Source of the DNA: an uncultured Verrucomicrobiota bacterium
GTDB taxonomy: Bacteria; Auribacterota; JABMQX01
Direction: 5' to 3'
Assembly: GCA_964640185.1 (NCBI GenBank)
Contig: CAZXGF010000010.1
Location: 162 to 64,161 of the forward strand
DNA length: 64,000 nt
Shown here one piece after another: positions 16,224-43,212 of this stretch (position 1 is the first letter of the stretch; every line of letters starts with the position of its first letter). Position numbers and translations under genes: made by a program. The notes below the pieces were generated by a model. It was not told where the DNA came from. It made no database searches and saw only the letters and a program-made list of their open reading frames with translations.

Positions 16224-16490
16224 GGGTGTGGCCGCGTCGCCGTGGCGTGTCCTCACGGCTCGTTTTGAACCTCTCCCGTCGCACGTTGACGCCGTGGATC
16301 TGTGCCCTCTGTCCCTCTATCATAGAAAGGAAAGGGCCACCGCCTCCTTTTCGCCCGCCCTCGGCGGGGGCCGCAGTCAGCCACCGGCTTTAGTCGGTGG
16401 TATGGATACGAGATTCTTCTCGTGGGAGCCGGCTTCAGCCCCGCCGAGGCGGGGCTTCTCGACCACAGGATTCATGCGAATTTCGCCACG
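16224..16490 (+). repeat. dispersed ~260-nt structured intergenic element, copy R1
   Basis: ~85% identical to 22263-22516 and to the reverse complement of 42845-43212. Conserved hairpin CCACCGGCTTTAGTCGGTGG; second hairpin has a compensatory extended stem (GCCCCGCC/GGCGGGGC). Confidence 0.8.
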
Positions 16491-16506
16491 CAGATACAGC
16501 CGCGCC

Positions 16507-17067
16507 CTATTCGCTGAGCTTGACGGCCGTCCCGTAAGCTAAAAGTTCAGACGCACTTGCCACAACACTCGTGGTCATATAGCGAACATTGATTATCGCG
16601 TCCGCCCCCATCTTTCCAGCCTGGGCGACCATCCTATTAGTAGCTGCTGCCCGAGCCCTTCGCATCATCTCTGTGTATTCAGTCAATTCGCCGCCGAGGA
16701 TCAACCGGACTATGGCGGATAGGTCTTTGCCAAGCCAGATAGCAAATACCGTCTGGCCCTGGACGAGACCGAGAATCTCCGTGATCTCTCGGCCAGGTAT
16801 TTCTGCCGAATTCATCAGCAAAACCGTGCGGTCGAACTCAGTGGGCAGCGGCCCCTCTCCTGATGCCTTCTTTTTCCTTTGTTCGAGAGCCACTGTCAGC
16901 AGAACCACAAGGATACCCCCCAGAAGGCAGAAAATTGCCGTCCGGAGCCACCAGGGCACAGGCGCCGGATCATCGGCAACGACCACGTGCCACGGTATCC
17001 CAACAAATACTGCCGTGAACAGCCCGACCACGAACGCCAGCGACCCAATCTGTCGAATCGTTTTCAT
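16507..17067 (-). CDS. YbjQ/UPF0145 (DUF74) family protein with N-terminal TM helices
   Basis: ITEILGLVQG...GADAIINVRYMTT...ELLAYGTAVKL core; RBS GGAGGAACT 5 nt before ATG. Confidence 0.7.
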   Translation of the reverse strand: MKTIRQIGSLAFVVGLFTAVFVGIPWHVVVADDPAPVPWWLRTAIFCLLGGILVVLLTVALEQRKKKASGEGPLPTEFDRTVLLMNSAEIPGREITEILGLVQGQTVFAIWLGKDLSAIVRLILGGELTEYTEMMRRARAAATNRMVAQAGKMGADAIINVRYMTTSVVASASELLAYGTAVKLSE

Positions 17068-17114
17068 AGTTCCTCCTTAGACCAGTAGAATCCGAAAAAT
17101 CTCAGCTAACCAGC
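17027..17114 (-). repeat. ybjQ 5' module copy A (RBS + first codons + upstream CAGCTAAC box), part of intact gene
   Basis: ~90% identical over ~80 bp to 18870-18949; diverged homolog at 20129-20290. Confidence 0.8.
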
Positions 17115-17181
17115 GAGCTGACCGCCGCAGCAGAACCTCCCGCGGCTTTTCAACCCCTAGGTTCAAGCCGTTGTTCCAAGT

Positions 17182-18672
17182 CTATCGCCACTTAAGGTTA
17201 CGCAAATCTTTTTCGACTTCACAAAGGAGTTTTGCTTGGACCACTACGAACTTCTCAGGGGCAGGGGTCGACGGAGTCGTCACTCCCGCGTACTTCTTGA
17301 AGCAAGTCGCGATCTTGGCACGCTTGGACTTCACCTTGCTCTTTTTGCCGTGGTCTACGTCGTGCTGCTCGGCAGTTCTCAATATGTTTACATCTGCAAA
17401 GCTTGCGGGCCAATCGCCCTGGAGTCGAGTTCCCACACTCTCCCGAAAAACGAAGTACAGTCCGTCAATCCAGTCTCGGTATCCCGTGTAGTTCTTAATG
17501 CACTGACCAATGTTCGCGAGCGCATTTGCGGTCTTGCTCGTGGCCCTAAACAGGTCTTCGCGCTTTTCTCCTGCGTACTCCTCATTTCGCTGCTCAACAA
17601 GATTACGAATGCGCCTGGCACGTTCAGCGAGGGACTTGTGGATCGCGCTCTCTGCGACGACGCTGACGCCTAGGATGTCAACAAAAGTAGGATCGTAAGC
17701 CAGAAGTTTGCCCAGGAGTATTTCGTTACGGATCTGTGCACCGCGACGGATGTTGGCGTTGACTGTTTTCTGGAAGGCCAGGTATTCAGGATCAGTGGCT
17801 TTCTGCCCCAGGGTAACTTGCCTCGAGAGTTCTTCCATGAAGAACTCAAAAAATTGCCTCAGCCGTTTCGCTGTTCCTTTGTGCTTACCTCTCTGAATGA
17901 CGCGCGACACCAACGTGGCGAATGATTGGACGATCGTGCGTTTTCGGAGTATACGACTCGCCGTTGGAAACACGTCGTCTAAGAAATTGAAGGTGGCGAC
18001 CAGCCTCTTTGCGGCTGTCGACTCCCCACTGAAACTTGCTTGGCTCAAAAATGTCGTGTTTAGGTCCTTGTAGCGAAGACTGGTTTCTATGCCCTCAATC
18101 TCAATCGCCGCAACCTTGGCGACTATATCGAAATGGCCGTACCGCTTATCAGTTGCGGTGACTTTCTCCTCGAAGAACTTGTGCGTTGACAGGTTCTTGC
18201 TGAAGTCTCGCAGCTTGCTTTGGACAGAATTAAGCTTCTCACTGCTTGTCAACGGGAGTCCTCCTTGGAGCCGCTGGAAGAACTCCTTCAACTCCTCTTC
18301 GTCAGCGTCACTGATTTCATCGAACTCGATCTCAAAGTCATCAAATAGGTCGGCCAGATGCTCCGGGAGACCCTTATAGTATTGCGCGCCGAATTCTTCT
18401 GCTGACGACGCGTTCAGCGCGAGTTCATTGTCGAAGAACTCGAACACCGCCACGAGTCGTTGTTGCCCGTCGACGACCTCGTACTCATTGGGCTGTGAAG
18501 AGGTTTTCAGGACATAGAATTTGGGCAACTTCCATCCGCGGAGGATCGAGTCGATAAGCAACTGCTTCTTGCTCTTTGGCCAGACCTTCTGGCGCTGCCA
18601 ATCTGGAATCTCGTACCGGTCCCGACGTTTGTATATTTTGTCCAGTGCCCTCTTTTCCGCTCGCATTTGCAT
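17182..18672 (-). CDS. DUF262 (ParB-like nuclease superfamily, GmrSD N-terminal domain) protein
   Basis: IPDWQRQKVW and VVDGQQRLVAVFEF hallmark motifs; AGGAGGT RBS 7 nt before ATG at 18672; C-terminal half unassigned. Confidence 0.75.
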   Translation of the reverse strand: MQMRAEKRALDKIYKRRDRYEIPDWQRQKVWPKSKKQLLIDSILRGWKLPKFYVLKTSSQPNEYEVVDGQQRLVAVFEFFDNELALNASSAEEFGAQYYKGLPEHLADLFDDFEIEFDEISDADEEELKEFFQRLQGGLPLTSSEKLNSVQSKLRDFSKNLSTHKFFEEKVTATDKRYGHFDIVAKVAAIEIEGIETSLRYKDLNTTFLSQASFSGESTAAKRLVATFNFLDDVFPTASRILRKRTIVQSFATLVSRVIQRGKHKGTAKRLRQFFEFFMEELSRQVTLGQKATDPEYLAFQKTVNANIRRGAQIRNEILLGKLLAYDPTFVDILGVSVVAESAIHKSLAERARRIRNLVEQRNEEYAGEKREDLFRATSKTANALANIGQCIKNYTGYRDWIDGLYFVFRESVGTRLQGDWPASFADVNILRTAEQHDVDHGKKSKVKSKRAKIATCFKKYAGVTTPSTPAPEKFVVVQAKLLCEVEKDLRNLKWR

Positions 18673-18869
18673 GAGATACCTCCTGTTGCGCCTGACGCTC
18701 CCAAAGATTGGCTCAGGGCCGCCTCGCACGCGGCGTGCAAGTGCAGCCGCTGCTTCCGTAGCATTGGCTCTTAGTCACAGGTCCAAGTGTACTCTTATGG
18801 TTTCGTCAAGGGACCCTGCCAGCCATTTCTCCGTCTTGGAAGGTTTCCCTAATAACCCGAGCACGGACC

Positions 18870-18949
18870 CCAGCGAGCCAATCTGTCGAATCGTTTTCAT
18901 AGTTCCTCCTTAGACCAGTAGAATCGGAAAGCCTCAGCTAACGGCGTGC
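18870..18949 (-). repeat. ybjQ 5' module copy B (hairpin, CAGCTAAC box, RBS, first 10 codons MKTIRQIGSL then diverges to a stop)
   Basis: Sequence identity with 17027-17114; upstream imperfect hairpin GAGCGGCGCGG..CCGCGTCCGGCTC at 18929-18966. Confidence 0.75.
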
Positions 18950-19007
18950 CGAGCGGCGCGGCCGTTAGCCCGCGTCCGGCTCCAGCGATGGTTTAGGGAT
19001 TCTACTT

Positions 19008-19640
19008 CTATTCCCCGATGATTCCAATGCTAATGATGGCGAACAGAACCAAGACTAAAGTACTCCAAAGGCCCAGGGGGCCAAGCATCCTTGTAGTCCT
19101 CTTATATGCGTCGTATTGTTCGCGAAATCTCATGCCAATGTCGTATTTCTCCTCAAGGACCGCTTGTACGATGTTGAGGCCCTGGACCAGGGGGAACATC
19201 AGCAGACCATCCAGGTTCCTCGTGATGAGTGGCAACCCCAGCGCGACCCAAACGATGCCCGTATAGATAGGATGCCTGAAATAGCGATAAGTCCCAGTTG
19301 TGAGTAGTCCTGCTTTTACGTCCCGCCCGCCAAGGGCTTTTCTCTTTGCGGCAGTGGTAACCGCCAGGGCGATTCCGGAAATAACTAAAGTAGAACCGAT
19401 CACCGGGAAACCGTAACGGACACTGGTGCTTCGCATAAAGGCGGCTGGAGGGATGCCGTCGCTGGCAGGCGGCAGGACAACTATAAGGTAGCAGAGAAGG
19501 TTATATGTTAGCACAGCCAGCAGATTGGCGATCTTGTTCTCAAGGATTCTCTGATATCTCCTGCGATCCCTGAGGAACCATGCGAAGACCCCGACGAGGG
19601 CTCCAAGCATTGCGAATAGGCTAAATCGAATGATCCACAT
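19008..19640 (-). CDS. isoprenylcysteine carboxyl methyltransferase (ICMT)/PEMT-family membrane methyltransferase
   Basis: Multi-TM; RHPIYTG motif plus downstream EE..L acidic patch typical of the ICMT family. Confidence 0.65.
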   Translation of the reverse strand: MWIIRFSLFAMLGALVGVFAWFLRDRRRYQRILENKIANLLAVLTYNLLCYLIVVLPPASDGIPPAAFMRSTSVRYGFPVIGSTLVISGIALAVTTAAKRKALGGRDVKAGLLTTGTYRYFRHPIYTGIVWVALGLPLITRNLDGLLMFPLVQGLNIVQAVLEEKYDIGMRFREQYDAYKRTTRMLGPLGLWSTLVLVLFAIISIGIIGE

Positions 19641-19680
19641 TGGGCTTTAGTGCATTCCCCCATACCTGCTTTGCCGATGC

Positions 19681-20085
19681 CTAACGCTGCGGCTTCTCCG
19701 CGCCCGCTGGAGCGACTTGCTGGGGTTTGGATTGTCTTTTGCGCTCAATCCATAAACTTGAAACGATTCCTGCCAACGAAAAGACGAAGATCGGAAGGAG
19801 ATCACTTGTAGTACGCTCGACATGATGGGCTGTTCCCAACGTTGTTACCCGAACGTAGAATTTTTCATCTTCAGACTTTTGATAGTCACCACTTTCCCCA
19901 ATCACTTGAGAGGCTGTCGCGACGGGTTCAACCTTTGCGGTGTAATGGGTTGGCTTCAAGACTCGATACTGAGCGTGATAGTGGACAAAACGCGCAAATA
20001 CCCATGTGCTAACAGTCCAAAAACAGATCATCGCAAAAATGACCAGAGGAAGCATGTGATAAAACCTCTCTTGCTGCCTTTTCAT
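19681..20085 (-). CDS. small membrane protein, hypothetical
   Basis: Two predicted TM segments flanking a polar core; no motif recognised. Confidence 0.4.
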   Translation of the reverse strand: MKRQQERFYHMLPLVIFAMICFWTVSTWVFARFVHYHAQYRVLKPTHYTAKVEPVATASQVIGESGDYQKSEDEKFYVRVTTLGTAHHVERTTSDLLPIFVFSLAGIVSSLWIERKRQSKPQQVAPAGAEKPQR

Positions 20086-20128
20086 GCCTGTCTCCTTTCA
20101 TTGCCGAACTATTGATTATCCTGAGCTG

Positions 20129-20242
20129 TCAGGCCACGGCCGGATCATCGGCAACCATCACGTGCCACGGGATCCCGGCAAATACTGCTGTGAAGAGCCC
20201 CAACACGAACGCCACCGAGCCAATTTGTCAAAGTATTTTCAT
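20129..20242 (-). pseudogene. ybjQ-like N-terminal gene fragment (copy C of the 5' module) with in-frame TGA at codon 5
   Basis: Translates MKIL*QIGSVAFVLGLFTAVFAGIPWHVMVADDP, versus MKTIRQIGSLAFVVGLFTAVFVGIPWHVVVADDP in the intact gene at 16507-17067. Confidence 0.7.
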
Positions 20243-20304
20243 AGCGCCTGCTTAGGCAACTAAAATCCAAAATGTCAGCTAACGACATAGCTCAGCGGCG
20301 CGCC

Positions 20305-21702
20305 TTATTGCGCGTCCGGTGGAGCGTTGTGTTGGGTGGAAGAATCGTCTCTTTCCCGAGCCGACAGTACTTTCAGCGCACCCTCGCATGCCTCCAGAAT
20401 CTGTGGGCTCTTGTAGTTGATCGCCTTCCATCGTCGTTGTGTCTCTTCGATTACGCTCCTGGTTCTGGGATCCCCGATACGCAGAAATGCGTAGACAGCC
20501 GCATAAGTCTCGCAGTACGCCCGCATATTGGCCCCGGACTTGTACGCATGCTTGCTCTCCCAATCAGGTTTAGCCATCTGCTGCTTCCAATGCTCGTTGT
20601 GTTTGTTCAACAGATCAATAAGAAAGGGCACAGCGCTCTCGCACCGGATCTCGCCTAAGAGATGTATAACACGCCTCCTGAGGAAGTCGCGCAGACTGAC
20701 TTTGGCTCCTTCGATATGTGAAGCAAGCTCGGCGCTGTCTAAATCGAGCCCTTGGTCTTTCCATTCTCTCTGGAGCTTGCGTTTGGTATTCTCGTACAAC
20801 GCGTTGAGATGAGGGGTGGCGAGTCGTTGCTCTGATCCGGGTCCATCTTTGAGTCCCTTGCGTCTCAGGATGTCCTGGTCAGTTTCCTCAAAAAGTTTGA
20901 TAAGCTCAGGGCATGCAGCATCACCACATGCCACAAGGCCATCTCTGGGTTCGTTTTTCATCCCCCACTGAAAAGATTCTATGAAGTATGGAAGCAATCT
21001 CACAACTCTGGTTTTGGGGTCACGGATCCTGAGCAGGCGTTGGAGTTTTAGATGATCCAGGTACCGCTGGGCACGCTCCTCTATGGCAACGTTCTTTTCC
21101 AGTTGCTGTCTGACAGCCGCTTCCGGATCTTCGGCTAAGTACGCCAAGAAGTAGCTTTTCAGAGACAGCGGTTGGATATCCTGCGGGTCTATGATCCCCA
21201 ACATTTGGGTATTTGAACGCTCGCTTCCCCAACGGTCAGTGCGTTTGCGGAGGAACCAGAGATTGTCTTCCCGTGCGTCCTTCAAAAGAGGCTCACAACT
21301 GAACGAACTGTTACCAGTGTCGAGTATGTAGATTGGGCCTGTCGGGGCGTGTTTCCGGCCCTTCTGCTCTTGAGGTCTGAAACCGTGTCCCCAGTATTTC
21401 CCGCCCACGCGGGGATCGAGGCCATAATGAATAATGATCATGATCTCCTTCTTGTGACATGTTCCCTTTATGACCTCAGTGATGACCAGCCTCGCGTGAT
21501 GTTCCCAGCTTATCCCCTCTTGTCGTTTCCGCTTGTGGGAAACATACTTGATGGAGCGTTCCTTCAAGTGCCCCACAACCATCAGTTCAGCCCGTTCCAC
21601 TACCGTCGCATCCTCGTATCTCGGTCGTAGCTCCGCGTTAGCGGTACTCGAACAGGCAATAAGCATCGGGAGAAACATCGCCAATCTTTTTGCAAGGGTC
21701 AT
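20305..21702 (-). CDS. lipoprotein, hypothetical (lipobox LIAC)
   Basis: GGAGAAAAG RBS; MTLAKRLAMFLPMLIACSS signal/lipobox. Start ATG overlaps the HicB-like stop (ATGA), implying translational coupling. Confidence 0.55.
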   Translation of the reverse strand: MTLAKRLAMFLPMLIACSSTANAELRPRYEDATVVERAELMVVGHLKERSIKYVSHKRKRQEGISWEHHARLVITEVIKGTCHKKEIMIIIHYGLDPRVGGKYWGHGFRPQEQKGRKHAPTGPIYILDTGNSSFSCEPLLKDAREDNLWFLRKRTDRWGSERSNTQMLGIIDPQDIQPLSLKSYFLAYLAEDPEAAVRQQLEKNVAIEERAQRYLDHLKLQRLLRIRDPKTRVVRLLPYFIESFQWGMKNEPRDGLVACGDAACPELIKLFEETDQDILRRKGLKDGPGSEQRLATPHLNALYENTKRKLQREWKDQGLDLDSAELASHIEGAKVSLRDFLRRRVIHLLGEIRCESAVPFLIDLLNKHNEHWKQQMAKPDWESKHAYKSGANMRAYCETYAAVYAFLRIGDPRTRSVIEETQRRWKAINYKSPQILEACEGALKVLSARERDDSSTQHNAPPDAQ

Positions 21703-21974
21703 CGTCTTTTCTCCGCACAACAATGATTATCTTGTTCCGTATAACGTCCCAAGTCGGGACGTTTTGCAGTATAAGACGCCGGCAAATCATGGCAAGAGTC
21801 GCACGCAAGCCGTTGGTTTTCAGTGGCTTGCATCATCGTCTTGCATTCCGCTTTGAGGCTCTCGAGCAGTTCCTCTCGCGTTCTTTCCTGGCAGTTCACA
21901 CCCGGAATCTCCTCTATCCATCCAATCCACCAATCTCCGTCCTTTTGCGTTATGGCTGTGTATGAGTTTGGCAT
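21699..21974 (-). CDS. HicB-family antitoxin-like protein (UPF0150); no recognisable HicA partner
   Basis: YTAITQKDGDWWIGWIEEIPGVNCQERTREELLESLKEA resembles the HicB N-domain. Confidence 0.55.
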   Translation of the reverse strand: MPNSYTAITQKDGDWWIGWIEEIPGVNCQERTREELLESLKAECKTMMQATENQRLACDSCHDLPASYTAKRPDLGRYTEQDNHCCAEKRR

Positions 21975-22262
21975 CTGAACACTCGCTTTCCCTGCACAGA
22001 TCTACAAAGAGTCTATCTGTGTACAAACGCCCCCACGCTTGATTGACTGGATGGGCCCATATTGCTGCACTCTTGACGCCATTACGGCCAACACGTGGCA
22101 TCCCGCCTTTGGCGGGACCCGTGAACCGTCATGAGCAAGATGCCCATGCCACTGAGGGAAAAATGCTATTCCAGCTACTGATGATCATCCTGCCCCTTCT
22201 GAGTCTAAGAACCATGCTCCCACACAGCTCTCCGAGCTGTCAAGCACTGTCTGGCAAATGGG

Positions 22263-22516
22263 TGTGGCCGCGTCTCCGTGGCATCCTCCGACGCCTGGTT
22301 TTGAACGTGTCCCGCCTCACGTTGACGCGGTGGATATGTCCAGCCTTTCGCTCTGTCGCAGAACGGAGAACGCCAGGGTTTCCTTTTCGCGTGCCCTCAG
22401 CGGGCGCCGGACTTAGCCACCGGCTTTAGTCGGTGGTATCGGATACGGGTTTTTTCTCGTGAGAGCCGGCTTCGGCCGGGCTTCTCGACCAGAGGATTCA
22501 TCCGAATTTCGCCACG
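22263..22516 (+). repeat. dispersed ~260-nt structured intergenic element, copy R2
   Basis: Aligns end-to-end with R1; hairpin GCCGG-C-UUCG-G-CCGGC present here. Confidence 0.8.
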
Positions 22517-22836
22517 GGAATACGACCACAACCCCCTTGAATGCAAGTGGCGGCCGCACGTTTGGAGATAAGCACATTCGTGACCGTTCACGGCACAGTC
22601 ACGAGGAAAGTGTCGCGCGTCCAGGGTGAGGCGGCGAGGACCGAGTCCTTCTCATCTTTCTCTCTGCGCCCCTGCGCCTTTGCCTTACTCCCCTTTTCCC
22701 TCTAAAACCCTTCAAGAGCGAGAAAGACCGCCGCACCGCCCTCTCCATCTACCGCAAAGCCCGCCGAATCTACGCCGACATCGAAAAACGCGCCCTCGCC
22801 AGCGGCAAACAGCCGGATTCGAAAACCCGCGTTCTA

Positions 22837-26203: not shown

Positions 26204-27354
26204 GCGGCAGCACGTCGCAAGATTTCCGCATGCTTGCTCGGATGATAGCCTCGCCCTATCCGCTTGTCAACGTGCACGGCCCTGAAGATGTGGCTGTGTT
26301 TCGCTGCCATGCCAGGTGGCTTTCCTTGTTTGAAACGACCTGAGCTGCAACGTTATGGGCGTCCACGGACGGCCTTGACACCGAAGCGGCGTCAGCGCAG
26401 CGCGGGCGGAAAGCCTCATTTATACGTAGTTTTGACGCAAATAGTGCCTTTTTTTCGCGCGTAATTCATTGTTACAGAAGGAAATGCAACCCGGCCTTTA
26501 ACCCCGAAAAGGGGCGAAAACTCCAGTAAATTCCAGTAGTCTCTCGACGAGAGGGCATACTGGAATGCCCGCTTTTCGGAAGGCTGGATCGGTTACGGTT
26601 GCGACTGCCATTCTTTTGGCACATTCATATCACAATTGCTGCCATTTGTCAAGAAGGGGGAATCTCGGTGGGTAACGCATCAGTCTCGGGGGGAGAGGAA
26701 CTCACCGCAGAGAGCGCAGAGGGCGCGGAGAAAATATTTACCCATCTTCGATGGACGCACAGGACAGCCCCATGGGCGGCTGACGAGCCTCGGGGGAGTT
26801 CCGTTTTCCTTTTTGGCCAGCGCCCGTCACTGTGTGCTCTGAAGGAACAATGATAGCGCGTGGCTCGGATCTGACGAAGCGCCCTCGTGGCATCTCGGCG
26901 GAGGTCCCGCGGAACGCGGGATGAACACTCATGGGCAAGATGCCCATGCTACGTCCCTCTACGTGCTCTGCGCACTCTGCGGTTTCACCCTTAGCCACCG
27001 GTAAGTGAGGGGTTACCTCGATGGGGCCGTATTTGCGTGGGATAATTCTCGCAGCCTGCAACGGCAGCACTCCTGCCGGTGAAAGTCCGGCGACGGTATC
27101 TGCCCGATGATGCCGTGTAGTCATACCCGACTCAGGGCAAGGGGGACCTTTCCCGGGGAAAGCTCGGGTGTAGAACCTCCATAAGCGGTGAAGAGCCGTG
27201 AAGTGGGAAGGAGCTGCCAGGAGAGGCGGCTCGGGCTGTAGTAGCGAAGATGCGGGTGGACAACATAACCCCCGCGGAGGGAAGGGCCTGTGGGCTCGGG
27301 GTGCTTGTGAGCTCCGGAAAGGGCTGTGCGTAGTGCCCTGTGGAGGCTAATCGC

Positions 27355-29202
27355 TTATTGGGACAGAACAAACTCGACGAGGTCCGCGAGCTCCTTGTCG
27401 CTCAGTTGCGAGGTGGTCCCGTGGGTGTCGTTCTCGTTAAACTTAGTTACAACTTCGCTCATGGTCGCGGCACGGCCATCGTAGAGGTATGGCGCCGTTC
27501 GCCACGCCTCAACCAGGGTTGGGGTGTCGAACTGGCGGTTCTCTTCCATGCCCCTGCCAGTGCCCACATCGTGTTTGCGCATGTCTGTGTACAACGGCGG
27601 AGGATGGCACCTCGCGCAGCCAGCTTTCTCAAAGACCTTTTTGCCTCGGACGGCCGAGGCGCTCAACGTCCCCTCGACCAGAAAGGGACTCGGAATCGGT
27701 TGCAGCGACTGGAGGTATTGGTCAATCGCAACGGCATCCGCTTCCGGGCGCACAGCGAACTGAATATGTTCGATGCCCGCGCGCACGGCGGACTCGGCAT
27801 TCTCACGCACGCCGGTGACCATCGCAGGCGGGGTTTTGTGCGAGAGGAGCAGGCTTTTGGTGTTCTTCGGGTTGCCCATACCGTCGTTGAGGAGGTCCCA
27901 GTTCAGGGTGTCGGCGCGCCCCCCCGGATGACAGCTCGAGCAGCTCTGCCATTTCTGAAAGCACAGCCTCGCATCGTGGAAGAAGATCTCGCCCCTTCGC
28001 ACGGCACTCATGCGGAACTGTGCCGTCAGCGGCAGAGACCGAGCTTTGGGCCGCGCCAGGCTGACGTCCACGACGCCAATTGTGTCGGTGAAATACTCGG
28101 CGGTATATACCTTCGTGCCGACGATGGTTAGAGCGCGCGGGCCATTGCCGGGGAGACTCAGGCGGCGTCGCACATCCGGAAAAAACGACAGGTCGTTTGG
28201 AACATCGGCGGCTGATGATGACACCTGGGAGACCCTTTCACCGCGAGCGACCCGGGCGAGCTTCTCGTGGAGCTTCGCTCTGTCAATAACGCTCACCTCG
28301 TGGGAGCCAGCGTGGGCGACGCAGATGTACTTGCCGTCAGCCGTGCACGCGACGCCCCAGGGGTTAGCCCCGCCGGAGGCCACATCATCCAGAAGGACCG
28401 TGTTCAAAACTGTTCGCTCCGCGACATCGAGAATGCTGAGGGCGTTGGTGTTCATCCAGCCCCGCTCGAGTTGCGTGGTTGGAAGCGGATACCGAGCCAG
28501 GATGTGGGTTACGTACGCGTGGCGGCCATGGGGCGAGATGCAGATACCCCTCAGCGCGGTGCTGCCGTTGTGCAACCGGACGCTGTTGACCACCTTCCGC
28601 GAAGATGTGCCGATGACCGAAACAGCCGCCGCCACGTAATCTTCGTCGGCAGCCCCCTCGGGCAAATGGTTCGCAACAAACAAATACTCGCCGTCCGGGG
28701 TCATGGCCGCGGCGATGGGCTCGCGCATCACGGGGACCCGGGCAACCTCCGTTTTCGAGGCAAGGTTGATGACCGAGACGTCGTTGTCGAACCGGTTGCA
28801 GACGTAGAGCGTTTTGCCATCGGGGCTGACGACGGGCGCCATAGGGGTGTGCCCCGCCGGAATACGGCACGTGATCTTTCCGTTTTTCGAGTCAATTACG
28901 TACACGCCGCCTCTGGGAAAGCAACCAGCCACGTACAAGCGGCTCTCGTCGGGAGAGAGCGCGAGTCCGGCGGGGCGGCCCGGGAGCAAAATGGTCCGGC
29001 TGACTTTCCCACTTGCGATGTCGAACACGGCGATGCGTTTCGCCGTGGCTTCGGCGACGTAAAGCGTCGTGCCTTCCATATCTGAGGCCAATGCCGTCGG
29101 CGAAGCGTAACTTTCCTGGACGGCGCCCGCGCTTGCCGCAAAAATGATGGATGCGCAAAGCCCGCCCTCGAGCAGCGTTGCATTGCGGAGCACTCGCCTC
29201 AT
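27355..29202 (-). CDS. YVTN beta-propeller / di-heme cytochrome-c-peroxidase-like protein
   Basis: YVTN repeats (LYVAEATAKRIAVFD, LYVAGCFPRGGVYVID, LYVCNRFDNDVSVIN); CSSCH and CARCH heme motifs; homologous to the C-terminal part of 8080-10968. Confidence 0.75.
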   Translation of the reverse strand: MRRVLRNATLLEGGLCASIIFAASAGAVQESYASPTALASDMEGTTLYVAEATAKRIAVFDIASGKVSRTILLPGRPAGLALSPDESRLYVAGCFPRGGVYVIDSKNGKITCRIPAGHTPMAPVVSPDGKTLYVCNRFDNDVSVINLASKTEVARVPVMREPIAAAMTPDGEYLFVANHLPEGAADEDYVAAAVSVIGTSSRKVVNSVRLHNGSTALRGICISPHGRHAYVTHILARYPLPTTQLERGWMNTNALSILDVAERTVLNTVLLDDVASGGANPWGVACTADGKYICVAHAGSHEVSVIDRAKLHEKLARVARGERVSQVSSSAADVPNDLSFFPDVRRRLSLPGNGPRALTIVGTKVYTAEYFTDTIGVVDVSLARPKARSLPLTAQFRMSAVRRGEIFFHDARLCFQKWQSCSSCHPGGRADTLNWDLLNDGMGNPKNTKSLLLSHKTPPAMVTGVRENAESAVRAGIEHIQFAVRPEADAVAIDQYLQSLQPIPSPFLVEGTLSASAVRGKKVFEKAGCARCHPPPLYTDMRKHDVGTGRGMEENRQFDTPTLVEAWRTAPYLYDGRAATMSEVVTKFNENDTHGTTSQLSDKELADLVEFVLSQ

Positions 29203-29354
29203 TTCTTCTCTTCTCCTCTCCTATTTTAGTGCCTCGGCATTTCAACAAAGATATGTTTGTCGAGTAACGCGGAGTTATCGGAAAGTGAGTCAGGTTCGAC
29301 GATGAATGCAGAATGAACAGCCCGCGCGCGCTCGTTGGGCGGTGTCAGGAGTTG

Positions 29355-31988
29355 TTACTCTTGTTTGTCATTCCGACTTTGTGGCCTTTCCGCCATTATG
29401 GATTCGCGGTCGGCGACCTCGCTATGTTGGCTTTGCTTTGCGATAAGCTTCTCGATATTGTTTCGCTCGATTTCCTCCATGCGCTTGCGTTTCTGCGTGA
29501 AGTGGTTGTACTTGCGAACATCGTCGGGCGACCATGCGTTGGCTTCTGTATAGTCGCCGCAATACGGAACTAACAGGTCTATCCAGCAAGCGAGCTTGTC
29601 GAATTCCTCTCGGGTCATTTTTACACCCTCATGCCCTGTTTCGAGCAGTGTGATGAGCAGGCTCCTGGCGGCTCCCGCGTAGTACGGCGGAAGCGCAGGC
29701 GGCGCCGACTGGGCACTGATCCAGTTCACGAGCTCGCTCGACTGGCCTCGCCGCGTCAGCGCCAGATAGGAATCGCTCCACTTTCGCCCTGCTACAGTGT
29801 CCTGCATTTGCTTGCCCAAAAGACTGAAGGAGGTCTCGCTGCCACGGCCCTGTCGCGGGTCTTTGGGAGTGCCGGACTGAGCCCCGCCATTGTGGCAGCG
29901 GATGCAGTGCCGGTCAAGAATCGGCTGGATTTCCCCGATAAAACTAAATCCCCTCGGGGGTCCGTAAAAGGGCTCGAGCTGCCTCGGCCCCGCTGCCATT
30001 GCGAGGGTCGCTTTTGTGACGAGTGGCGTGGAGTTCTTGCTTTCGTGGCAGCCAACGCAGGAGAACACCTCCCCCGGCTGGAGGGTGGACCAGCTCCGCA
30101 TGGTCTGGACAGCGTGCCGCTTTTCATCGAGGGCCTGAAAGTAAACAGGTGTGCGCGCCGGCACGGTGAAGCAGGCTGAGCCGTCCTCGTACACTTGGGC
30201 GTCGCCCAGCACAATCTTAATGTCCCAGCTCCCGTTGCCAATCGCGATGGGGGTGCTAATGAGGGCACTCCCGGCGGGGCCGCGATTTCGGTTTTCCCCA
30301 ATGCCCGCCGCACGGTATTCGAGCGCCACCACGCGAAGTCGCTTGACAGTTCCGCGAGGAACGCCTCGCAGGCTCGGCCCGGCGTAAATGTCCTGGACAT
30401 AGTAGGCGCCTGTCTTCTTGCGGTAATCCACGACGCTCGGACGCACGTGCGGCCTCTTGCGCGGCGAGAGCGGCACGGGCTGGTTGCAGGAGATGCGCGG
30501 GTCAGATACCAAAAGCTCTCGCCGGCCGTCAATGGTCATGAAATAGATGGCGTAGGGCCGCACATACCTTTTGCTCCCGCTGCCGTAAGGGTCGTAGGTC
30601 ACAAGGAAGCACGTCTCACTCAGCGGGTAGGGATATTGAAACTGGTCGCCGTCCTGGCCGTACTGGTCAACGCGAACGGCCCGGGTCTCGCGAACCGGGG
30701 CGACCAACTGCACGCCGGCGGCTTCTTGGCGGCCCCGCCGGATGTCTATGATGGCCAGCTTCCCCCGCTGGTGAGTGTGGTGCCCGGACAAAACCGCGAC
30801 GATCTCACTTGAGGCGGGGATGCCCCTGGCGTGCATGATGGTGGTGGGAAACCAGGAGTTGTTCCCATAACACTCGGTTTGACCCGTTCCGTCGGGGTTC
30901 ATCCGGAACAGGGGTTGGGTGTAGATTTGACCCCGATCGCTGTATTCCCAGCGAGTATAGATGACCTGACCATCATCCCGCACGGACGGATAATTGGTGT
31001 GGACCTGGTCGAAGGTCAACCGGCGGAGATAGCTTCCGTCCTTGTCGCAAGTGTAAAGGTTACTGACCTCGGTCCACCAGCAGTCCACCGTTTGCACACA
31101 GCGGGTTGAGCTAAACACGATGTCGCCATTGGGTAGGTACGCTGGCTCGTAATCTGCGAAGCCCAGGCCGAAGGTGAGCTGGCGGACAGTCCCGCTCGCC
31201 ACGTCCATCTCGTAAAGATGGTAGTCGTCCTTGCGGTCAGATTTCTTCCACGCGAAGAGGATACGTTTGGCATCGTACGAGACAGCGGGGTCGCGGATGA
31301 CGCCATTCGGGTCGTGGATGAGGGTCTGCACATCGCCGTAGTTGCCGTTCATCTTCAGAAGGCAGAGGCTGGCGCCCGGTATGAAATGCCGCTCGCTCTG
31401 GGCGTCAGACTGGCCCTCGGTATAGGCATAATGTGATCCGCCCAGATTGTAATGTTTCGTGAAAACGATCTTCGCGCAGTGCTCGAGCAGAGGTTTGAGG
31501 CGCATCCCTCGCCGTCGTTCGCAGGCTTTCACGTAAAGGTCCAGCCAGCGGTGGTCATCCGGCGCGGACCCGCCGGCGCAAAGCTCCTCGAGTTCCCCCC
31601 GGAAATCCCCGCCGCCCGGGCCAATTTCGTCCAAAACCCGGGCGACCATCTTCTTCTCGAGCTCGGTGTCGCTGGCATTGCCAAACCAGTTGTGGAAGTC
31701 TTTGCCCACGTCCTGAAGTGCCCAGTCACATCGAATTGGAAAATCGGTCTCAACCTGCGACCAAAGCTTCGCTTGCCGCTGGCGTTTGTCCTTCTCTGAA
31801 ACCTCCAGCTTCTCCAACGCTTCGCGTGAGGCAAGCATTGTCTCGCTCCAGGTATCCCGCTTGATATAGCATCGTGGCTTTTCACTCCGTTGCGCCCGCC
31901 CACCTGTAGCGGCGCTCTCGACGCTGAGAAAAGAGCTGAAGAAGAAATAAACCAGTCCAGCCCCACAAGCGGCGATTGTTACTCTCAT
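29355..31988 (-). CDS. TolB/PD40-like beta-propeller protein with CxxCH motifs (repeat-free paralog of 3290-6346)
   Basis: CVGCHES and CIRCHNG; propeller (PNGDIVFSSTRC, DGQVIYTRWEYSD); C-terminal FDKLACWIDLLVPYCGDY block; signal peptide. Confidence 0.75.
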   Translation of the reverse strand: MRVTIAACGAGLVYFFFSSFLSVESAATGGRAQRSEKPRCYIKRDTWSETMLASREALEKLEVSEKDKRQRQAKLWSQVETDFPIRCDWALQDVGKDFHNWFGNASDTELEKKMVARVLDEIGPGGGDFRGELEELCAGGSAPDDHRWLDLYVKACERRRGMRLKPLLEHCAKIVFTKHYNLGGSHYAYTEGQSDAQSERHFIPGASLCLLKMNGNYGDVQTLIHDPNGVIRDPAVSYDAKRILFAWKKSDRKDDYHLYEMDVASGTVRQLTFGLGFADYEPAYLPNGDIVFSSTRCVQTVDCWWTEVSNLYTCDKDGSYLRRLTFDQVHTNYPSVRDDGQVIYTRWEYSDRGQIYTQPLFRMNPDGTGQTECYGNNSWFPTTIMHARGIPASSEIVAVLSGHHTHQRGKLAIIDIRRGRQEAAGVQLVAPVRETRAVRVDQYGQDGDQFQYPYPLSETCFLVTYDPYGSGSKRYVRPYAIYFMTIDGRRELLVSDPRISCNQPVPLSPRKRPHVRPSVVDYRKKTGAYYVQDIYAGPSLRGVPRGTVKRLRVVALEYRAAGIGENRNRGPAGSALISTPIAIGNGSWDIKIVLGDAQVYEDGSACFTVPARTPVYFQALDEKRHAVQTMRSWSTLQPGEVFSCVGCHESKNSTPLVTKATLAMAAGPRQLEPFYGPPRGFSFIGEIQPILDRHCIRCHNGGAQSGTPKDPRQGRGSETSFSLLGKQMQDTVAGRKWSDSYLALTRRGQSSELVNWISAQSAPPALPPYYAGAARSLLITLLETGHEGVKMTREEFDKLACWIDLLVPYCGDYTEANAWSPDDVRKYNHFTQKRKRMEEIERNNIEKLIAKQSQHSEVADRESIMAERPQSRNDKQE

Positions 31989-35144: not shown

Positions 35145-35432
35145 AGTGGCCTCTTTTTCTATCGTGCTGTCAAGAGCCGGGAAAGGCAGGAAAACCGTTT
35201 CCCGCGTGCGAGGGCTATATTGGCTATTTTCGCCTGGAGGGAGGGCAAAGTCAAGCGCTTCCCGGAAGAAGGGTGCGGCTGTGTTTCGGTGGGAAGGAAA
35301 GGGGGGAGAAACCTTAACGCAGAGACGCAGAGAGGGGCTGAATGGCAAAAGCCGGACCACTCCTTTGTGGCGCGGGCGTCTCGCCCGTGAAGAATCATGG
35401 GCAAGATGCCCATGCCACGGGACAGGCGAGGA

Positions 35433-35546
35433 CGGACTCCTTCTCATTCTTCTTCTCTCTGCGACTCTGCGCCTTTGCGTTAATCTGCTGTTCCCTTCTT
35501 GCCTCCTCCAGCTCGGCCAGCTATCCGCCCGAGACTGAAGGGTTAC
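35433..35546 (+). repeat. ~80-nt conserved module M2 (GCGCCTTTGCGTTAATCTGCTGTTCCCTTCTTGCCTCCTCC...CCGCCCGAGACTGA)
   Basis: Differs from 3033-3117 by three transitions over ~80 nt; preceded by hairpin CATGGGCAAGATGCCCATG at 35395-35413. Confidence 0.8.
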
Positions 35547-35634
35547 ATACAGCCGCACATTCCGATTGCCTCGGTGTTGTTCTATTTGATACTTTCAGAG
35601 GAAAATCGAGGTTTCAATCTGGCTGGAAAGGGGT

Positions 35635-40066: not shown

Positions 40067-40069
40067 ACA

Positions 40070-41449
40070 CTACCTGGCGGGGTTCGTGCTGTTCAGGTAT
40101 TCCTCGATATTGGTGTAGCCATCTCCGTCTTTGTCCGCGGCACTGTCGGACGCGTCGTGGGGATTTAACTCATGCTTTATTTCCCACGCATCCGGCATGC
40201 CGTCATGGTCGCTATCTTTAGGCGAGGGAAGGGACTTCAGTTCTGGCCACCCGCCGACTTCCCTTTGCGAATCAATTATTCGCCCTTTCCCTGTCCGAAT
40301 CTCGTCCATTATGCGGGCGTCCACGGCGTCGCGCTCTGGCAGGTTGGCGCCGCAGGAAGCGAGGATTCTTTCGTAAGCCCTTAGAGCACTGTCCGTCTTG
40401 ACTGCCGCCACCGGATAAGCCTTCTTCATCTTGTTGCATTCTTTCGCACGGGAAATGAGGTTCCAGTTGTCCCGGTTAGCGTCCCCACCGCCGGCCAGAT
40501 AATTACCTTCGACGTACATCTGTGTCGCCTCGCCGCCAACGCGAAACGCGTAGCCGGTCGGCCGCTTGATGTAGTTGCCAATGTAATTGATTCTCGCAGG
40601 ATCCTTCGCCGTATAGCCGTATGAATTGTAGATAAGGTTGTTCCGAAAATCGAGCATGATGCTTCCCTTCCCGTACGTTCCCGGGCGAGGGCTGCGAGAG
40701 CTGTGATGTGCGTAAACGTTATGGTGGAAGGTGATATTTCCATTGCATCTGAGGAGCGAGCCGTAACCGTGGGGGCCCTTTTGGTGATAGCTCCGGTTCA
40801 GCGATTCGCTGATGATGCACCACTGCACTGTCACGTTGGTGATGCCTTCGCCGGAGACGGAAAGCGCCTCGTCAATCGCCCAACTCGTCGAGCAGTGGTC
40901 CAGGATGACATCCCGGCTGGGCACGCCCATCGAAAGAGCGTCCGGCTGGAAACTTTTGCCCCGTTTCTTGTACGCTGGGCCGAGCTCGTCCCCCGGGCGA
41001 AAACGGACGTAACGCACAATCACGTCGTGGGCGCGAATTGTGGTCTCATGGTTTTTCAGGCAGATTCCTTCGCCCGGTGCGCTTTGACCGGCGATGGTGA
41101 TGTAAGGTTTCGTGATGTCGAGTGCGATCTTGAGCGGTATTGCCCCCGAGACCCGGAAGACCACAATGCGAGGCCCTTCTGCGTCGCACGCCGCGCGGAG
41201 GCTGCCCCGGACCGGCTGCTCGTCACCCGGAAGATAGTCGTCCAGCTTCGTGACGAACAGCACTTTCCCGTGCCGTCCGCCGAGGGCGTACCTCCCGAAG
41301 CCCTCCGCCCCGGGGAAAGCGAGGGTTCGTGCATTCGCAGCCAGCTCTTCAGCTCCCAGCCGGGGCGCCGCACAAAACGCGAGCGGCGATGCCACGACCA
41401 TCAGCGCAACAAAACCGTCCCTACGCATAGTTCCTACAAAACCTTCCAA
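40070..41449 (-). CDS. pectate lyase (PL1) with C-terminal TSP3/dockerin-like Ca-binding tail
   Basis: FPGAEGFGRYALGGRHGKVLFVTKLDDY...GSLRAACDAEGPRIVVF is the classic PL1 N-terminus; beta-helix NN/WIDH-like repeats; tail DSDHDGMPDAWE...DKDGDGYTNIEEY. Confidence 0.8.
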   Translation of the reverse strand: MEGFVGTMRRDGFVALMVVASPLAFCAAPRLGAEELAANARTLAFPGAEGFGRYALGGRHGKVLFVTKLDDYLPGDEQPVRGSLRAACDAEGPRIVVFRVSGAIPLKIALDITKPYITIAGQSAPGEGICLKNHETTIRAHDVIVRYVRFRPGDELGPAYKKRGKSFQPDALSMGVPSRDVILDHCSTSWAIDEALSVSGEGITNVTVQWCIISESLNRSYHQKGPHGYGSLLRCNGNITFHHNVYAHHSSRSPRPGTYGKGSIMLDFRNNLIYNSYGYTAKDPARINYIGNYIKRPTGYAFRVGGEATQMYVEGNYLAGGGDANRDNWNLISRAKECNKMKKAYPVAAVKTDSALRAYERILASCGANLPERDAVDARIMDEIRTGKGRIIDSQREVGGWPELKSLPSPKDSDHDGMPDAWEIKHELNPHDASDSAADKDGDGYTNIEEYLNSTNPAR

Positions 41450-41468
41450 ACTGTACTCCCGCGAGAAT

Positions 41469-41487
41469 CATGGGCAAGATGCTCATG
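41469..41487. promoter_or_regulatory. hairpin/palindrome CATGGGCAAGATGCTCATG, 20 nt upstream of the pectate lyase start codon
   Basis: Same 8-bp-stem palindrome at 22130-22148, 26930-26948 and 35395-35413. Confidence 0.5.
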
Positions 41488-41521
41488 CCACGGCGAACTC
41501 TTGCAGAGGCGGCGGACACGT

Positions 41522-42568
41522 TCACCGGTTTTTGCTCGGCTTCACAGTGGGGCCGGTCACCCTCTTGACCAGGAGGTCCTCAAACGCCGCCATATCCTTC
41601 CACTCCGTCGCCACCCTTATGACCTTTGCGGCGGGGTCAATGACTGTGTAGCCGTCGTCCGTTACGCGGATGCCCAACTTCTCGACCCGGACAAGCTTTT
41701 CGGAGAATGCGAGGTACACGGCTACCGTATCGAAGAGCGTGCTGCTTGCGGACTTGGGCTGCTCTTTGTTCCCCGACCAGATGCGATAGTTCTCGATGAC
41801 CGCGGCAGCGACCCTGTCCTTTGAGTCGCGAACCGTCCTGTACTTTTCGCCTTTTAGGTGAACAAGGCCGCACGTGTCCAGCGGCGTGATGGTTATCCTC
41901 CACGGAGCGGTGAGCACCTTCTGGCATGATTTGGGGTCGGCGCGCACGTTGTACTCCGCGGCAACCTTCTTGCTCCCGCCGTAGCCGCGACGCACGCTGC
42001 CGTGCATGCCGACGAAGCGGGCTTTGCGGGCGATCCTGGGCTCGAGCTCGAGCGCGGCAGCAACGTTCGGAATTGGCCCGGTCCCAATCAGCGTCACCCG
42101 CCGCGGCGACTTCATTATGGTATCAACGATGGCTTTGACGCCGTTCTGGTGTACCTTGCCCGGGTACGACTTCAACTCGTAGCCCTCAATCCAAGCCGAT
42201 TGGCCGCCGCTGCCGCTCTTCGGGCCGGCGCCGACCCCCACGGGGATGTCCGTTCTCCCGGCTGTCTCGAGGAGTTTTGCGAGCAGGCGCGCCCGGTAAA
42301 GCGATTTGCCTTGGTCGCCGACGACCAGTTTGATGTCCACTTCGGGGGACTTCAGCAGCAGCGCCAGCGCCCAAGTGTCGTCAATATCATCACCAATATC
42401 AGTGTCGAAAATCACTGGAATCTTCCTCGATGCTCGCGGGACTTTCGCGGCGCCGGATGCGGCGTTGCTCTTCAATCCATAGGTGCAGGCAGACCCTATC
42501 ACGAGGAGGCCTACGATGGCTCGAATCGGGATTGCCGACAAGATGATCTGACACACTGCTCGTTTCAT
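41522..42568 (-). CDS. inosine-uridine-preferring nucleoside hydrolase (IUNH family), secreted
   Basis: IPVIFDTDIGDDIDDTWALALLL (DxDxxxDD) signature. Confidence 0.85.
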   Translation of the reverse strand: MKRAVCQIILSAIPIRAIVGLLVIGSACTYGLKSNAASGAAKVPRASRKIPVIFDTDIGDDIDDTWALALLLKSPEVDIKLVVGDQGKSLYRARLLAKLLETAGRTDIPVGVGAGPKSGSGGQSAWIEGYELKSYPGKVHQNGVKAIVDTIMKSPRRVTLIGTGPIPNVAAALELEPRIARKARFVGMHGSVRRGYGGSKKVAAEYNVRADPKSCQKVLTAPWRITITPLDTCGLVHLKGEKYRTVRDSKDRVAAAVIENYRIWSGNKEQPKSASSTLFDTVAVYLAFSEKLVRVEKLGIRVTDDGYTVIDPAAKVIRVATEWKDMAAFEDLLVKRVTGPTVKPSKNR

Positions 42569-42844
42569 TGCGCGCTCCTTTCTTTCCGCTCAACCGGAAT
42601 TTCACGTTTTTGCGGGCAGCTTTTATACATGGAGGTTGTCGCAACATTCACCCGGCGAGGAACGATGAGCCGAGTCTCTCCCGAGCAGCCCACTCTACCC
42701 AAGAGTATGGTGCATTCGCTCTCGAAAGTCGAGCTATTTGATGAATCGGGAAGATCCTGCCTCCGGGACGGCGTTACTCTTGCCAAACCTACCTACTGGA
42801 ATGCAAACCGGCGCCGTCAACAGGTGCGGCTATATTTGCGAGGG

Positions 42845-43212
42845 GGAATTCGGATGAATCCTCCGGTCGAGAAGCCCGGCTAAAGCCGGCTCTCACGAGA
42901 ACAATCCCGAATCCGATACCACCGACTAAAGCCGGTGGCTAAGTACAACTGTTCGTAAATACGGCCACGTATTGTGGATTCAAAATCTGATATGTTTCAT
43001 GGCCTTTTGGTCATTGCAACATCCGAATACGTTACCGAGTTTATGAATCAGAACACTAAGCCCGGTGCCCGCTGGGGGCACGCGAAAAGGAAGCCGTGGC
43101 GTTTTCCGTTGTACGGTAAAGGGCCAAACTGAACGAATGCACAGCATCAACCTCGGGCAGGAGAGCTTCAAAACGAGGCGTCAGAGCATGCCAGCGACTG
43201 GCGGCCACACCC
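42845..43212 (-). repeat. dispersed ~260-nt structured element, copy R3 (reverse orientation), interrupted by a 112-bp insertion
   Basis: Reverse complement aligns with R1/R2 on both sides of the insertion at 42944-43055. Confidence 0.8.
42944..43055. mobile_element. 112-bp AT-richer insertion inside R3, flanked by 5-bp direct duplication CTAAG/CTTAG (MITE-like?)
   Basis: R2 has a single cttag at the homologous point; R3 has cttag-[112 bp]-cttag (42939-42943 and 43056-43060 on the plus strand). Confidence 0.55.

Follow-up and report, generated by a model that had tools for sequence, protein, structure and literature searches.

The 64,000-nucleotide stretch analyzed here (the window) comes from an uncultured Verrucomicrobiota bacterium (GenBank assembly GCA_964640185.1, contig CAZXGF010000010.1, positions 162 to 64,161 of the forward strand) and contains three copies, R1, R2, and R3, of one non-coding element of about 275 nt. 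A mechanical repeat search (direct repeats D8 and D16; inverted repeats I1-I3 and I7) followed by alignment confirmed the original prediction that the three are homologous. The neighbors of R1 are a YbjQ-like gene and a beta-lactamase-fold gene; R2 separates an unannotated gene from a HEAT-repeat gene, and R3 occupies the spacer between the divergent nucleoside-hydrolase and ThuA genes. All three copies are intergenic, as first described, and the description of their neighbors as accessory genes is only loosely true. Pairwise identity, with a 117-nt insertion removed from R3, is 80.2% for R1/R2, 77.7% for R1/R3, and 80.3% for R2/R3, below the value of about 85% given earlier. The copies are non-coding and differ from one another by indels of 1, 11, and 117 nt, which agrees with the earlier remark that frame-shifting indels leave their translations unconserved. 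The end previously assigned to R3, 42845, had to be moved to 42822, as 23 nt containing the 3′ terminal inverted repeat (TIR) had been lost. An array of hairpins occupies the 3′ half of the element (H0, H1, a variable hairpin Hv, H2 followed by CTTCTCGA, and H3), and the H1 hairpin CCACCGGC-TTTA-GTCGGTGG, reported as retained, is found in three of three copies. The copies, assigned below to a family of miniature inverted-repeat transposable elements (MITEs), their parts, and the target-site duplication (TSD) of R3 are as follows.

16224-16507, plus strand: R1, full-length MITE copy, subfamily A1, 284 nt
16224-16246, plus strand: 5′ TIR of R1
16355-16370, plus strand: H0 of R1
16381-16400, plus strand: H1 of R1
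16408-16423, plus strand: Hv of R1
16427-16456, plus strand: H2 of R1, with an 11-nt insertion inside at 16441-16451
16468-16477, plus strand: H3 of R1
16485-16507, plus strand: 3′ TIR of R1
22260-22533, plus strand: R2, full-length MITE copy, subfamily A2, 274 nt
22260-22282, plus strand: 5′ TIR of R2
22391-22407, plus strand: H0 of R2
22417-22436, plus strand: H1 of R2
22445-22460, plus strand: Hv of R2
22464-22482, plus strand: H2 of R2, loop TTCG
22494-22503, plus strand: H3 of R2
22511-22533, plus strand: degenerate 3′ TIR of R2
43212-42822, minus strand: R3, MITE copy, subfamily A2, 274 nt of element plus a 117-nt nested element
43190-43212, minus strand: 5′ TIR of R3
43065-43081, minus strand: H0 of R3
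42919-42938, minus strand: H1 of R3
42895-42910, minus strand: Hv of R3
42873-42891, minus strand: H2 of R3, loop TTTA
42852-42861, minus strand: H3 of R3
42822-42844, minus strand: 3′ TIR of R3
42814-42821: first copy of the R3 TSD, CCGTCAAC in plus-strand letters, a 7/8 match to 43213-43220
43213-43220: second copy of the R3 TSD, GCGTCAAC in plus-strand letters

The element belongs to a large family. A 20-mer hairpin scan of GTDB species genomes returned 29 loci, and a 25-mer scan of JGI metagenomes returned at least 80, with three or four matches on each of several long contigs and up to four per 150-kb contig. A profile search of the fetched loci with nhmmer gave 128 hits (43 full-length, 32 unique). 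Family copies are 274-293 nt long, with indels of 1, 7, 11, and 117 nt among them, and none of 39 full-length copies lies in a long open reading frame (ORF); every copy scored is intergenic. Three contigs of the bin.280 metagenome-assembled genome (MAG) terminate within the element, as high-copy repeats are expected to make them do.

The ends of the element are imperfect TIRs of about 23 nt. The 5′ consensus is GGGTGYGGCCGCGTnTCnGTGGC, and the 3′ end is its reverse complement, ending in ...GCCACGCAAATACGGCCGCACCC; when the 5′ end GGGTGTGGCCGCGTCTCCGTGGC is set against the reverse-complemented 3′ end GGGTGCGGCCGTATTTGCGTGGC, about 18 of 23 positions are equal. The TIRs are conserved over subfamilies A1, A2, and B (consensus identity 0.87-1.00), and the window holds six TIR-like matches, compared with 2.6 expected by chance. 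Outside the TIRs lie 8-bp TSDs, in that the flanking 8-mers are equal within a copy and different between copies. Perfect duplications include ATGCACCC (locus L092), GTTGCGTT (L051), GCACAAAG (L037), GTGCGGCC (L036), TCTTCCAC (L057), and GCCTGGTG (L025). Across 45 unique TIR-bounded elements, the TSD matched at 8/8 positions in 13, at 7/8 in six, and at 6/8 in four, whereas a shifted control using 8-mers 10 nt further out reached a maximum of 6/8, once, and never 7/8 or more. Even a deletion derivative that lacks H1 and Hv keeps a 7/8 TSD (L087, 7910-8130). In the window, the TSD of R1 is degraded (TTCCGAGT / TATTCGCT, a 2/8 match) and that of R2 is not recognizable (1/8); R1 and R2 are taken to be older copies because their duplications have been lost and, in R2, because the 3′ TIR is also degenerate.

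The TIRs, 8-bp TSDs, and copy number strongly support the identification of the element as a MITE, a kind of element characterized by a length of 70-300 bp, TIRs of 15-30 bp, and no coding capacity (PMC3733652). We consider it very likely that R1-R3 belong to a family of non-autonomous DNA transposons of the cut-and-paste type, about 275 nt long, whose TIRs would be recognized by a DDE-type transposase encoded elsewhere. This enzyme, putative in both its chemistry and its identity, would bind the ~23-bp TIRs and make 8-bp staggered cuts at insertion, which would give each copy its own 8-bp TSD. The original prediction had proposed a "structured ncRNA/MITE family" and suggested looking for further copies and inspecting their ends; the MITE half is borne out by the TIRs, the copy-specific 8-bp duplications, and the at least 80 metagenome loci.

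The MITE ends and 8-bp TSD are compatible with mobilization by IS1- or IS6/IS26-like enzymes, which are not the only ones to make 8-bp TSDs. As candidate sources of the transposase, IS1 (target duplications of 8-9 bp) and IS6/IS26 (8 bp) match the 8 bp found here; ISL3, IS1595, and IS256 also yield 8-bp TSDs. IS1/IS6-type ends read GGnnnTG, with G at positions 1, 2, and 7 (PMC10425158, Table 8; PMC6807381). The 5′ TIR agrees (GGGTGTG), but the 3′ TIR departs from this form at position 6, which is C (GGGTGCG). We take the remainder of the TIR to be unlike the ends of IS1 and IS26. No IS1- or IS6-type transposase gene was found in the window or related loci, and no transposase was found at L102. 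TIR pairs 900-3500 nt apart were also inspected: their longest ORFs encode a methyltransferase, an asparagine-synthase-like protein, and others, and no TIR-bounded transposase was among them. An IS-like gene pair about 180 nt from one MITE copy (L107, 3757-5311; DUF6788, then a 417-aa DDE_Tnp_1 protein) has ends and TIRs that do not match those of the MITE, so there is no evidence that it mobilizes the element.

We then turned to the hairpins. H1 has an 8-bp stem with a conserved G·T pair and a TTYA loop. The loop of H2 is TTCG in R2, TTTA in R3, and TTCA in most family members. The 11-nt insertion in H2 of R1 (CCGCCGAGGCG, 16441-16451) marks a subfamily, and many other copies have it. Because G·U/G·T pairs occur on the strand in R1 orientation and A·C pairs are rare, the hairpin structure is strand-specific.

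The exact H1 20-mer, CCACCGGCTTTAGTCGGTGG, equals a subterminal hairpin of IS200/IS605 elements that carry Y1_Tnp genes in Firmicutes, Actinomycetota, and several Proteobacteria. Hosts of the 20-mer outside the Planctomycetes-Verrucomicrobia-Chlamydiae (PVC) group include Alpha-, Gamma-, and Deltaproteobacteria, a Peptococcaceae MAG, Nitrosomonas, and an actinomycete, and there it sits in a conserved multi-hairpin context, ...CCGGCTTTTAGCCG-TAACnnGAAG-H1-AGTATTCAC. In L010 (1-660), a 150-aa Y1_Tnp protein (Pfam E = 1e-42) is encoded ahead of this block, with 55 nt between its stop codon and the start of the block, and the left end of the same element is a CCAGC-TTTA-GCTGG hairpin. In L023 (7141-8000), the distance from H1 to the Y1_Tnp gene downstream of it (E = 2e-39) is 134 nt, and that gene is followed by an HTH_OrfB_IS605 (TnpB) N-terminus. 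Y1 genes also adjoin H1 in L004 (1900-2520), L013 (5364-6605), and L018 (880-1393). In its H0-spacer-H1 layout (GCCGGGCTTTAGCCGGC-11 nt-H1 in subfamily B), the MITE matches the IS200 right end. Judged by sequence, H1 is the subterminal imperfect palindrome of a widespread IS200/IS605 lineage, and the hairpin array of the MITE is homologous to such palindromes. IS200/IS605 TnpA recognizes hairpins of this kind on single-stranded DNA (ssDNA) (PMC3201880).

The H1 20-mer also occurs with no Y1 gene nearby, for example in L005, L007, L009, and L017, and the base-for-base conservation of the hairpin across phyla is notable. A search of the literature for the motif yielded primer sequences, all of them unrelated. 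The proteobacterial H1 context has the look of the 3′ region of a Cas9 or IscB RNA, and an omegaRNA or trans-activating CRISPR RNA (tracrRNA) was considered and rejected: the neighbors checked in L005, L017, and L018 are RibD, a helix-turn-helix protein, and a Tc-toxin-like protein; the conserved upstream ORF in L004, L010, and L018 is the C-terminus of IS200 TnpA; and the TnpB fragment of L023 has no homologue in the other loci.

Within the MITE family, covariation is weak. The RNAalifold covariation term over 31 members is -0.52 kcal/mol, and a hand-specified structure of seven helices scores 0.089 on the same members (shuffles, 0.079; slid controls, 0.03-0.07). The invariance of H1 within the family is built in because retrieval used an exact match inside it. 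The more distant relatives compared include secondary copies without the exact pattern and modules from other genomes. Here, the H1 stem occurs as CCACCGGC/GTCGGTGG, CCACCAGC/GCTGGTGG, CCACCACG/CGTGGTGG, and GCACGGGC/GCCCGTGC; the H2 stem as GCCGGC/GCCGGGC, GCCGCC/GGCGGGC, GCTCGC/GCGAGGC, and GCAGGC/GCCTGGC; and the H3 stem as GGAT/ATCC and GGCT/AGCC, while the loop is TTYA in every variant. On 27 modules hand-picked for diversity, covariation was 0.207, compared with 0.093 ± 0.010 for shuffles (0 of 500 reached 0.207) and 0.035-0.073 for slid controls. Double changes affect 15 of 24 pairs (five in H1, three in H2, and one in H3 among them), and the paired fraction is 99% for H1, 97% for H2, and 100% for H3. 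Compensatory changes in H1-H3 across relatives in other genomes are clear.

Divergence from the subfamily consensus was measured for H2 and its CTTCTCGA tail, which lie outside the search pattern, and for other parts of the element.

H2 block: 0.017 in A1, 0.037 in A2, 0.036 in B
5′ interior: 0.053 in A1, 0.137 in A2, 0.173 in B
TIRs, both ends: 0.09-0.11 in A1, 0.11-0.15 in A2, 0.15-0.17 in B

H2 is three to six times less diverged than the other regions, TIRs included, in all three subfamilies. Given this low divergence and the covariation of H1-H3 among distant relatives, the conclusion that the hairpin module is not decaying neutrally holds up. The original prediction had likewise invoked selection on structure, on the ground of compensatory changes in the second hairpin. 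That ground gave way, since the differences among the window copies are real but consist of loop substitutions and the 11-nt insertion, with no compensatory pairs, and the family by itself covaries scarcely more than controls do; a departure from neutral decay is supported instead by the low divergence of H2 and by the covariation seen in the diverse modules.

Two alternatives concern what the element is. It might be an element of the repetitive extragenic palindrome (REP)/REPIN or PATE type, moved as ssDNA by a Y1 enzyme (IS200/IS605 TnpA or RAYT) acting on H1 and H2, with the TIRs incidental; we regard this as very unlikely. The identity of H1 with the end hairpins of genuine IS200/IS605 elements speaks for it, as do the covarying stems with their strand-specific G·T pair, the known likeness of REPs to IS200/IS605 subterminal hairpins (PMC3333891), and the arrangement of the H1-H2 module in other PVC genomes as REPIN-like inverted doublets of about 190 nt. 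However, IS200/IS605 elements have neither TIRs nor target duplications (PMC3333891), and the window element has both, which argues that the element as a whole is not moved by the Y1 route. The hairpins also lie 100-150 nt inside the element, away from its ends, and the derivative without H1 and Hv still has its 7/8 TSD; a search of the window and 0.8 Mb of related loci turned up no Y1 gene. The MITE also lacks the GTAG (or CGTC) tag that marks the palindrome foot in classical REP super-families (PMC3733652): it has TTAG at the 5′ foot of H1, where TTTG, TCTG, or GAAG stands elsewhere. That the copies are structured small-RNA genes or cis-regulatory RNAs, duplicated around the genome and kept for an RNA function, appears more improbable still. 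Conserved hairpins with UUYA and UUCG tetraloops, G·U pairs on one strand only, and the low divergence of H2 would suit such RNAs; single-sequence folds are stabler than shuffles (z = -2.5 on the plus strand, -4.3 on the minus strand), and a mild orientation bias exists between co-directional genes (12 antisense and 3 sense, from crude ORF calls). The TIRs and copy-specific TSDs nevertheless show an origin by transposition, and pairing between the two TIRs supplies much of the fold stability. The copies have no promoter or terminator signal in common, and in R3 the sequence is interrupted by another element at a position where other copies have repeatedly received insertions. The covariation of H1-H3 across distant relatives would be expected equally of ssDNA hairpins, and that within the family is about equal to controls. 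A gathering-threshold scan of the window with Rfam 15 returned only a tRNA; a scan at E ≤ 1 returned nothing over R1 and R2 and, over R3, two chance eukaryotic matches far below threshold, and non-PVC loci with H1 had no match either. With no relevant Rfam match, the cited variation reduced to a loop change and an insertion, and within-family covariation barely above controls, the RNA half of the original prediction falls away. IS200/IS605-type strand-specific hairpins, rather than a free-standing RNA gene, are the best explanation of the constraint.

A further alternative accepts the MITE but treats the conservation of its hairpins as non-functional, the product of very recent amplification combined with gene conversion or palindrome-templated repair in an ordinary MITE. 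We find this unlikely. Copies of subfamily A1 are close (5% divergence), module shuffling is visible (solo 3′ halves, H0-to-H2 deletion derivatives, and shared TIRs around other interiors), and the H1 data are biased by ascertainment, all of which would fit. Yet the regions of one copy are equal in age, and H2 still differs from its neighbors in three of three subfamilies. The conservation covers loops as well as stems, and distant stems change in compensatory pairs while TTYA and CTTCTCGA stay fixed, which conversion alone would not predict.

Reading R1-R3 as a DDE-mobilized MITE with a constrained hairpin module has several points against it. All loci were fetched by an exact match within H1, so the sampling of copies is biased. 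R1 and R2 themselves have no recognizable TSDs, and their case is one of family membership. Neither the window nor ~0.8 Mb of related loci yielded an autonomous element with matching TIRs; a TIR search of viral contigs gave zero matches, and one of plasmids and plasmid IS ends gave only chance matches (E = 8). No empty orthologous site was recovered among the fetched loci or near-identical strains. For the fetched loci, this is explained by their retrieval through presence of the element; R1 and R3 are present in all near-identical strains, 18 contigs (Ga03155xx and a Logan run) encode the ThuA protein of the window, all of them sharing its 795-nt spacer, and a look-up of the R2 neighbor returned no record. 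The failure to find a Y1 transposase gene, by tblastn with L010 TnpA in the window and ~0.8 Mb of PVC and metagenome loci (only part of the genome), counts here too. On the side of constraint, the Fisher p-values for H2 versus its surroundings, 4e-4 down to 6e-9, are optimistic because copies share ancestry; gene conversion between copies could be another source of the low H2 divergence and is the chief competitor to continued use of the module as a hairpin; and the structure scored on the hand-picked 27 modules was derived from the same sequences.

The element also invites comparison with known systems. Correia/NEMIS (Neisseria), ERIC (Enterobacteria), RUP (Streptococcus pneumoniae), and Nezha (cyanobacteria) are likewise small, high-copy, and intergenic, with TIRs, TSDs, stable hairpins, and a presumed IS transposase acting in trans. 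Unlike in those families, the array inside the present element is of IS200/IS605 type and less diverged than the TIRs, and its TIR and interior are unrelated to theirs as far as testable (no Rfam, plasmid, or viral match). Correia elements duplicate TA, whereas the present element duplicates 8 bp. REP/REPIN sequences with RAYT (TnpA-REP) and PATEs share with it imperfect palindromes that are short and GC-rich, keep their loops, and change their stems in a compensatory way, the equivalence of H1 to a Y1-element subterminal hairpin, and the inverted doublets of other PVC genomes. They differ in that the window element has TIRs and 8-bp TSDs, lacks the GTAG tag, carries its hairpins internally and in the same direction, and has no Y1 gene found nearby or in related loci. 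Di Nocera et al. (2013, PMC3733652) described TIRtrons and TIR repeat families (RAYT-like genes, long TIRs) and chimeras of REPs with unrelated stem-loops, including in Rhodopirellula baltica. Those families are defined by TIRs, as ours is, and coexist with Y1-type transposases; their TIR motif is GGGGWSAS, not the GGGTGYGG start seen here, TSDs are unreported there, and no TIRYT gene was seen here.

Taken together, the element looks like a chimera, a DDE-type MITE carrying a Y1-type (REP/PATE-like) hairpin array. The module probably came into an ancestral element through insertion or recombination, as the shuffling of modules (solo 3′ halves, H0-H2 deletions, other interiors) suggests. Individual copies would still be under constraint in this module, which most likely serves as a hairpin of ssDNA or RNA to which a protein binds; it might bind a Y1/RAYT-type protein or stabilize or terminate transcripts. 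A stronger version is possible but, in our view, doubtful: a dual-system chimera in which a DDE-mobilized MITE carries a working Y1/RAYT-recognized module, held under purifying selection in each copy (bound as ssDNA or RNA by a Y1-family protein or host factor), and spreads functional REP-like sites that also serve as landing pads for a second MITE inserting at CTTAG.

That second element, MITE-2, is the insertion in R3. Its TIR consensus is TGYTCYGATTCATAAAYTCGGnnACGTATT, and its insertion point is the CTTAG at the 5′ foot of H1. Longer relatives of 430-500 nt occupy the same CTTAG foot, in both orientations, in at least four other distinct host copies (L040/L105a, L105b, L041, and L077), two of which retain perfect 8-bp TSDs. 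Repeated insertion at the same CTTAG argues for a strong target preference of MITE-2 for the H1 foot. Other miniature elements in the window share the TIRs of R1-R3. MITE-2, its relatives, and these elements are as follows.

42939-43055, minus strand: MITE-2, nested in R3, 117 nt counting one CTTAG copy, with ~30-nt TIRs TGTTCTGATTCATAAACTCGGTAACGTATT / TACAACTGTTCGTAAATACGGCCACGTATT and CTTAG on both sides
L040, ~2855-3297: MITE-2 relative
L105, ~2029-2471: MITE-2 relative
L105, ~6667-7123: MITE-2 relative
L041, ~4711-5213: MITE-2 relative
L077, ~2864-3297: MITE-2 relative
35271-35556, plus strand: "family 2" element, 286 nt, with the same TIRs as R1-R3 (GGGTGCGGCTGTGTTTCGGTGG ... ACATACAGCCGCAC) and an unrelated interior
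470-603, plus strand: mini-element, 134 nt, with the same TIR type (GGGCGCGCCCGCGTCTTAGTGGC ... GCCACTGAAATGGAGCCGCACCC)

Modules of "family 2" recur at 3010-3115 and 22633-22701 and in dozens of metagenome loci, where the same TIRs also enclose other interiors in elements 212-304 nt long, some with perfect TSDs. The host genome thus appears rich in modular miniature elements. The REPIN-like inverted H1-H2 doublets of about 190 nt, which are without the TIRs of the MITE, occur in Planctomycetota and Verrucomicrobiota MAGs at the following positions.

L020, 3340-3530: inverted doublet
L021, 5343-5523: inverted doublet
L027, 434-586: inverted doublet
L003, 1653-1848: inverted doublet
L029, 2629-2881: inverted doublet

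Several other features of the window were recorded. A palindromic repeat of about 35 nt, CCCGTGAAnnnTCATGGGCAAGATGCCCATGCCAC, occurs four times (22118-22152, 26918-26952, 35384-35418, and 41457-41491); at 22090-22152 it lies within a unit of about 58 nt, GTGGCAT...ATGCCAC, about 110 nt upstream of R2. The stretch bracketed by R1 and R2 (16500-22200) has a GC content of 0.51-0.54, compared with 0.57-0.60 around it. A composite transposon formed by R1 and R2 around this low-GC 5.7-kb segment was considered and rejected, as the outer flanks match at only 3/8 positions. Within the stretch, a block of about 130 nt (16964-17097, 18797-18930, and 20139-20272) recurs in three neighboring genes of the minus strand, one YbjQ-like, one with a GmrSD_N domain, and one a 134-aa ORF; read on that strand, it comprises the ribosome-binding site, the ATG, and a similar N-terminal segment.

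Elsewhere, positions 3406-6304 hold dense heptanucleotide arrays (ATTTCGG, CCGCAAT, GAAATCC, AATCCGC) in both orientations, with higher-order periods of 33, 55, and 82 nt; they overlap a mechanical 1018-aa ORF just upstream of a gene for an FG-GAP/VCBS-like repeat protein. At 27355-31988, an 877-aa protein whose middle domain is of the hydrazine-synthase-alpha type (HZS_alpha, E = 3e-32) adjoins a beta-propeller/di-heme cytochrome c protein, with glycoside hydrolases nearby and HdrA-like and NiFe-hydrogenase genes further along the window. After a tRNA-Arg(CCT) gene (45734-45808) come a 168-aa ORF that weakly matches Int_N, a low-GC stretch (0.45-0.50, 47-50 kb), and beyond it, in the region to 54000, a 1084-aa helicase (AAA_11/AAA_12) with a PLD nuclease domain. 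The segment 45734-54000 may be a tRNA-integrated island, perhaps with defense genes.

R1-R3 represent an undescribed family of a well-known kind of element; to judge by the taxa in which the hairpin module occurs, their host is probably a member of the PVC group. As a high-copy repeat, the family breaks assemblies of this uncultured sediment bacterium and is worth masking against false ORF and small-RNA calls. Its chimeric architecture and conserved hairpins are a modest curiosity; REP chimeras and Y1-linked TIR families have been reported previously (PMC3733652). The lower divergence of the hairpins relative to the TIRs hints that REP-like sites may be carried around a genome by transposition of an unrelated kind and kept afterwards; if confirmed, this would be an extra case for the debate on the spread and domestication of REP/REPIN-like sequences.

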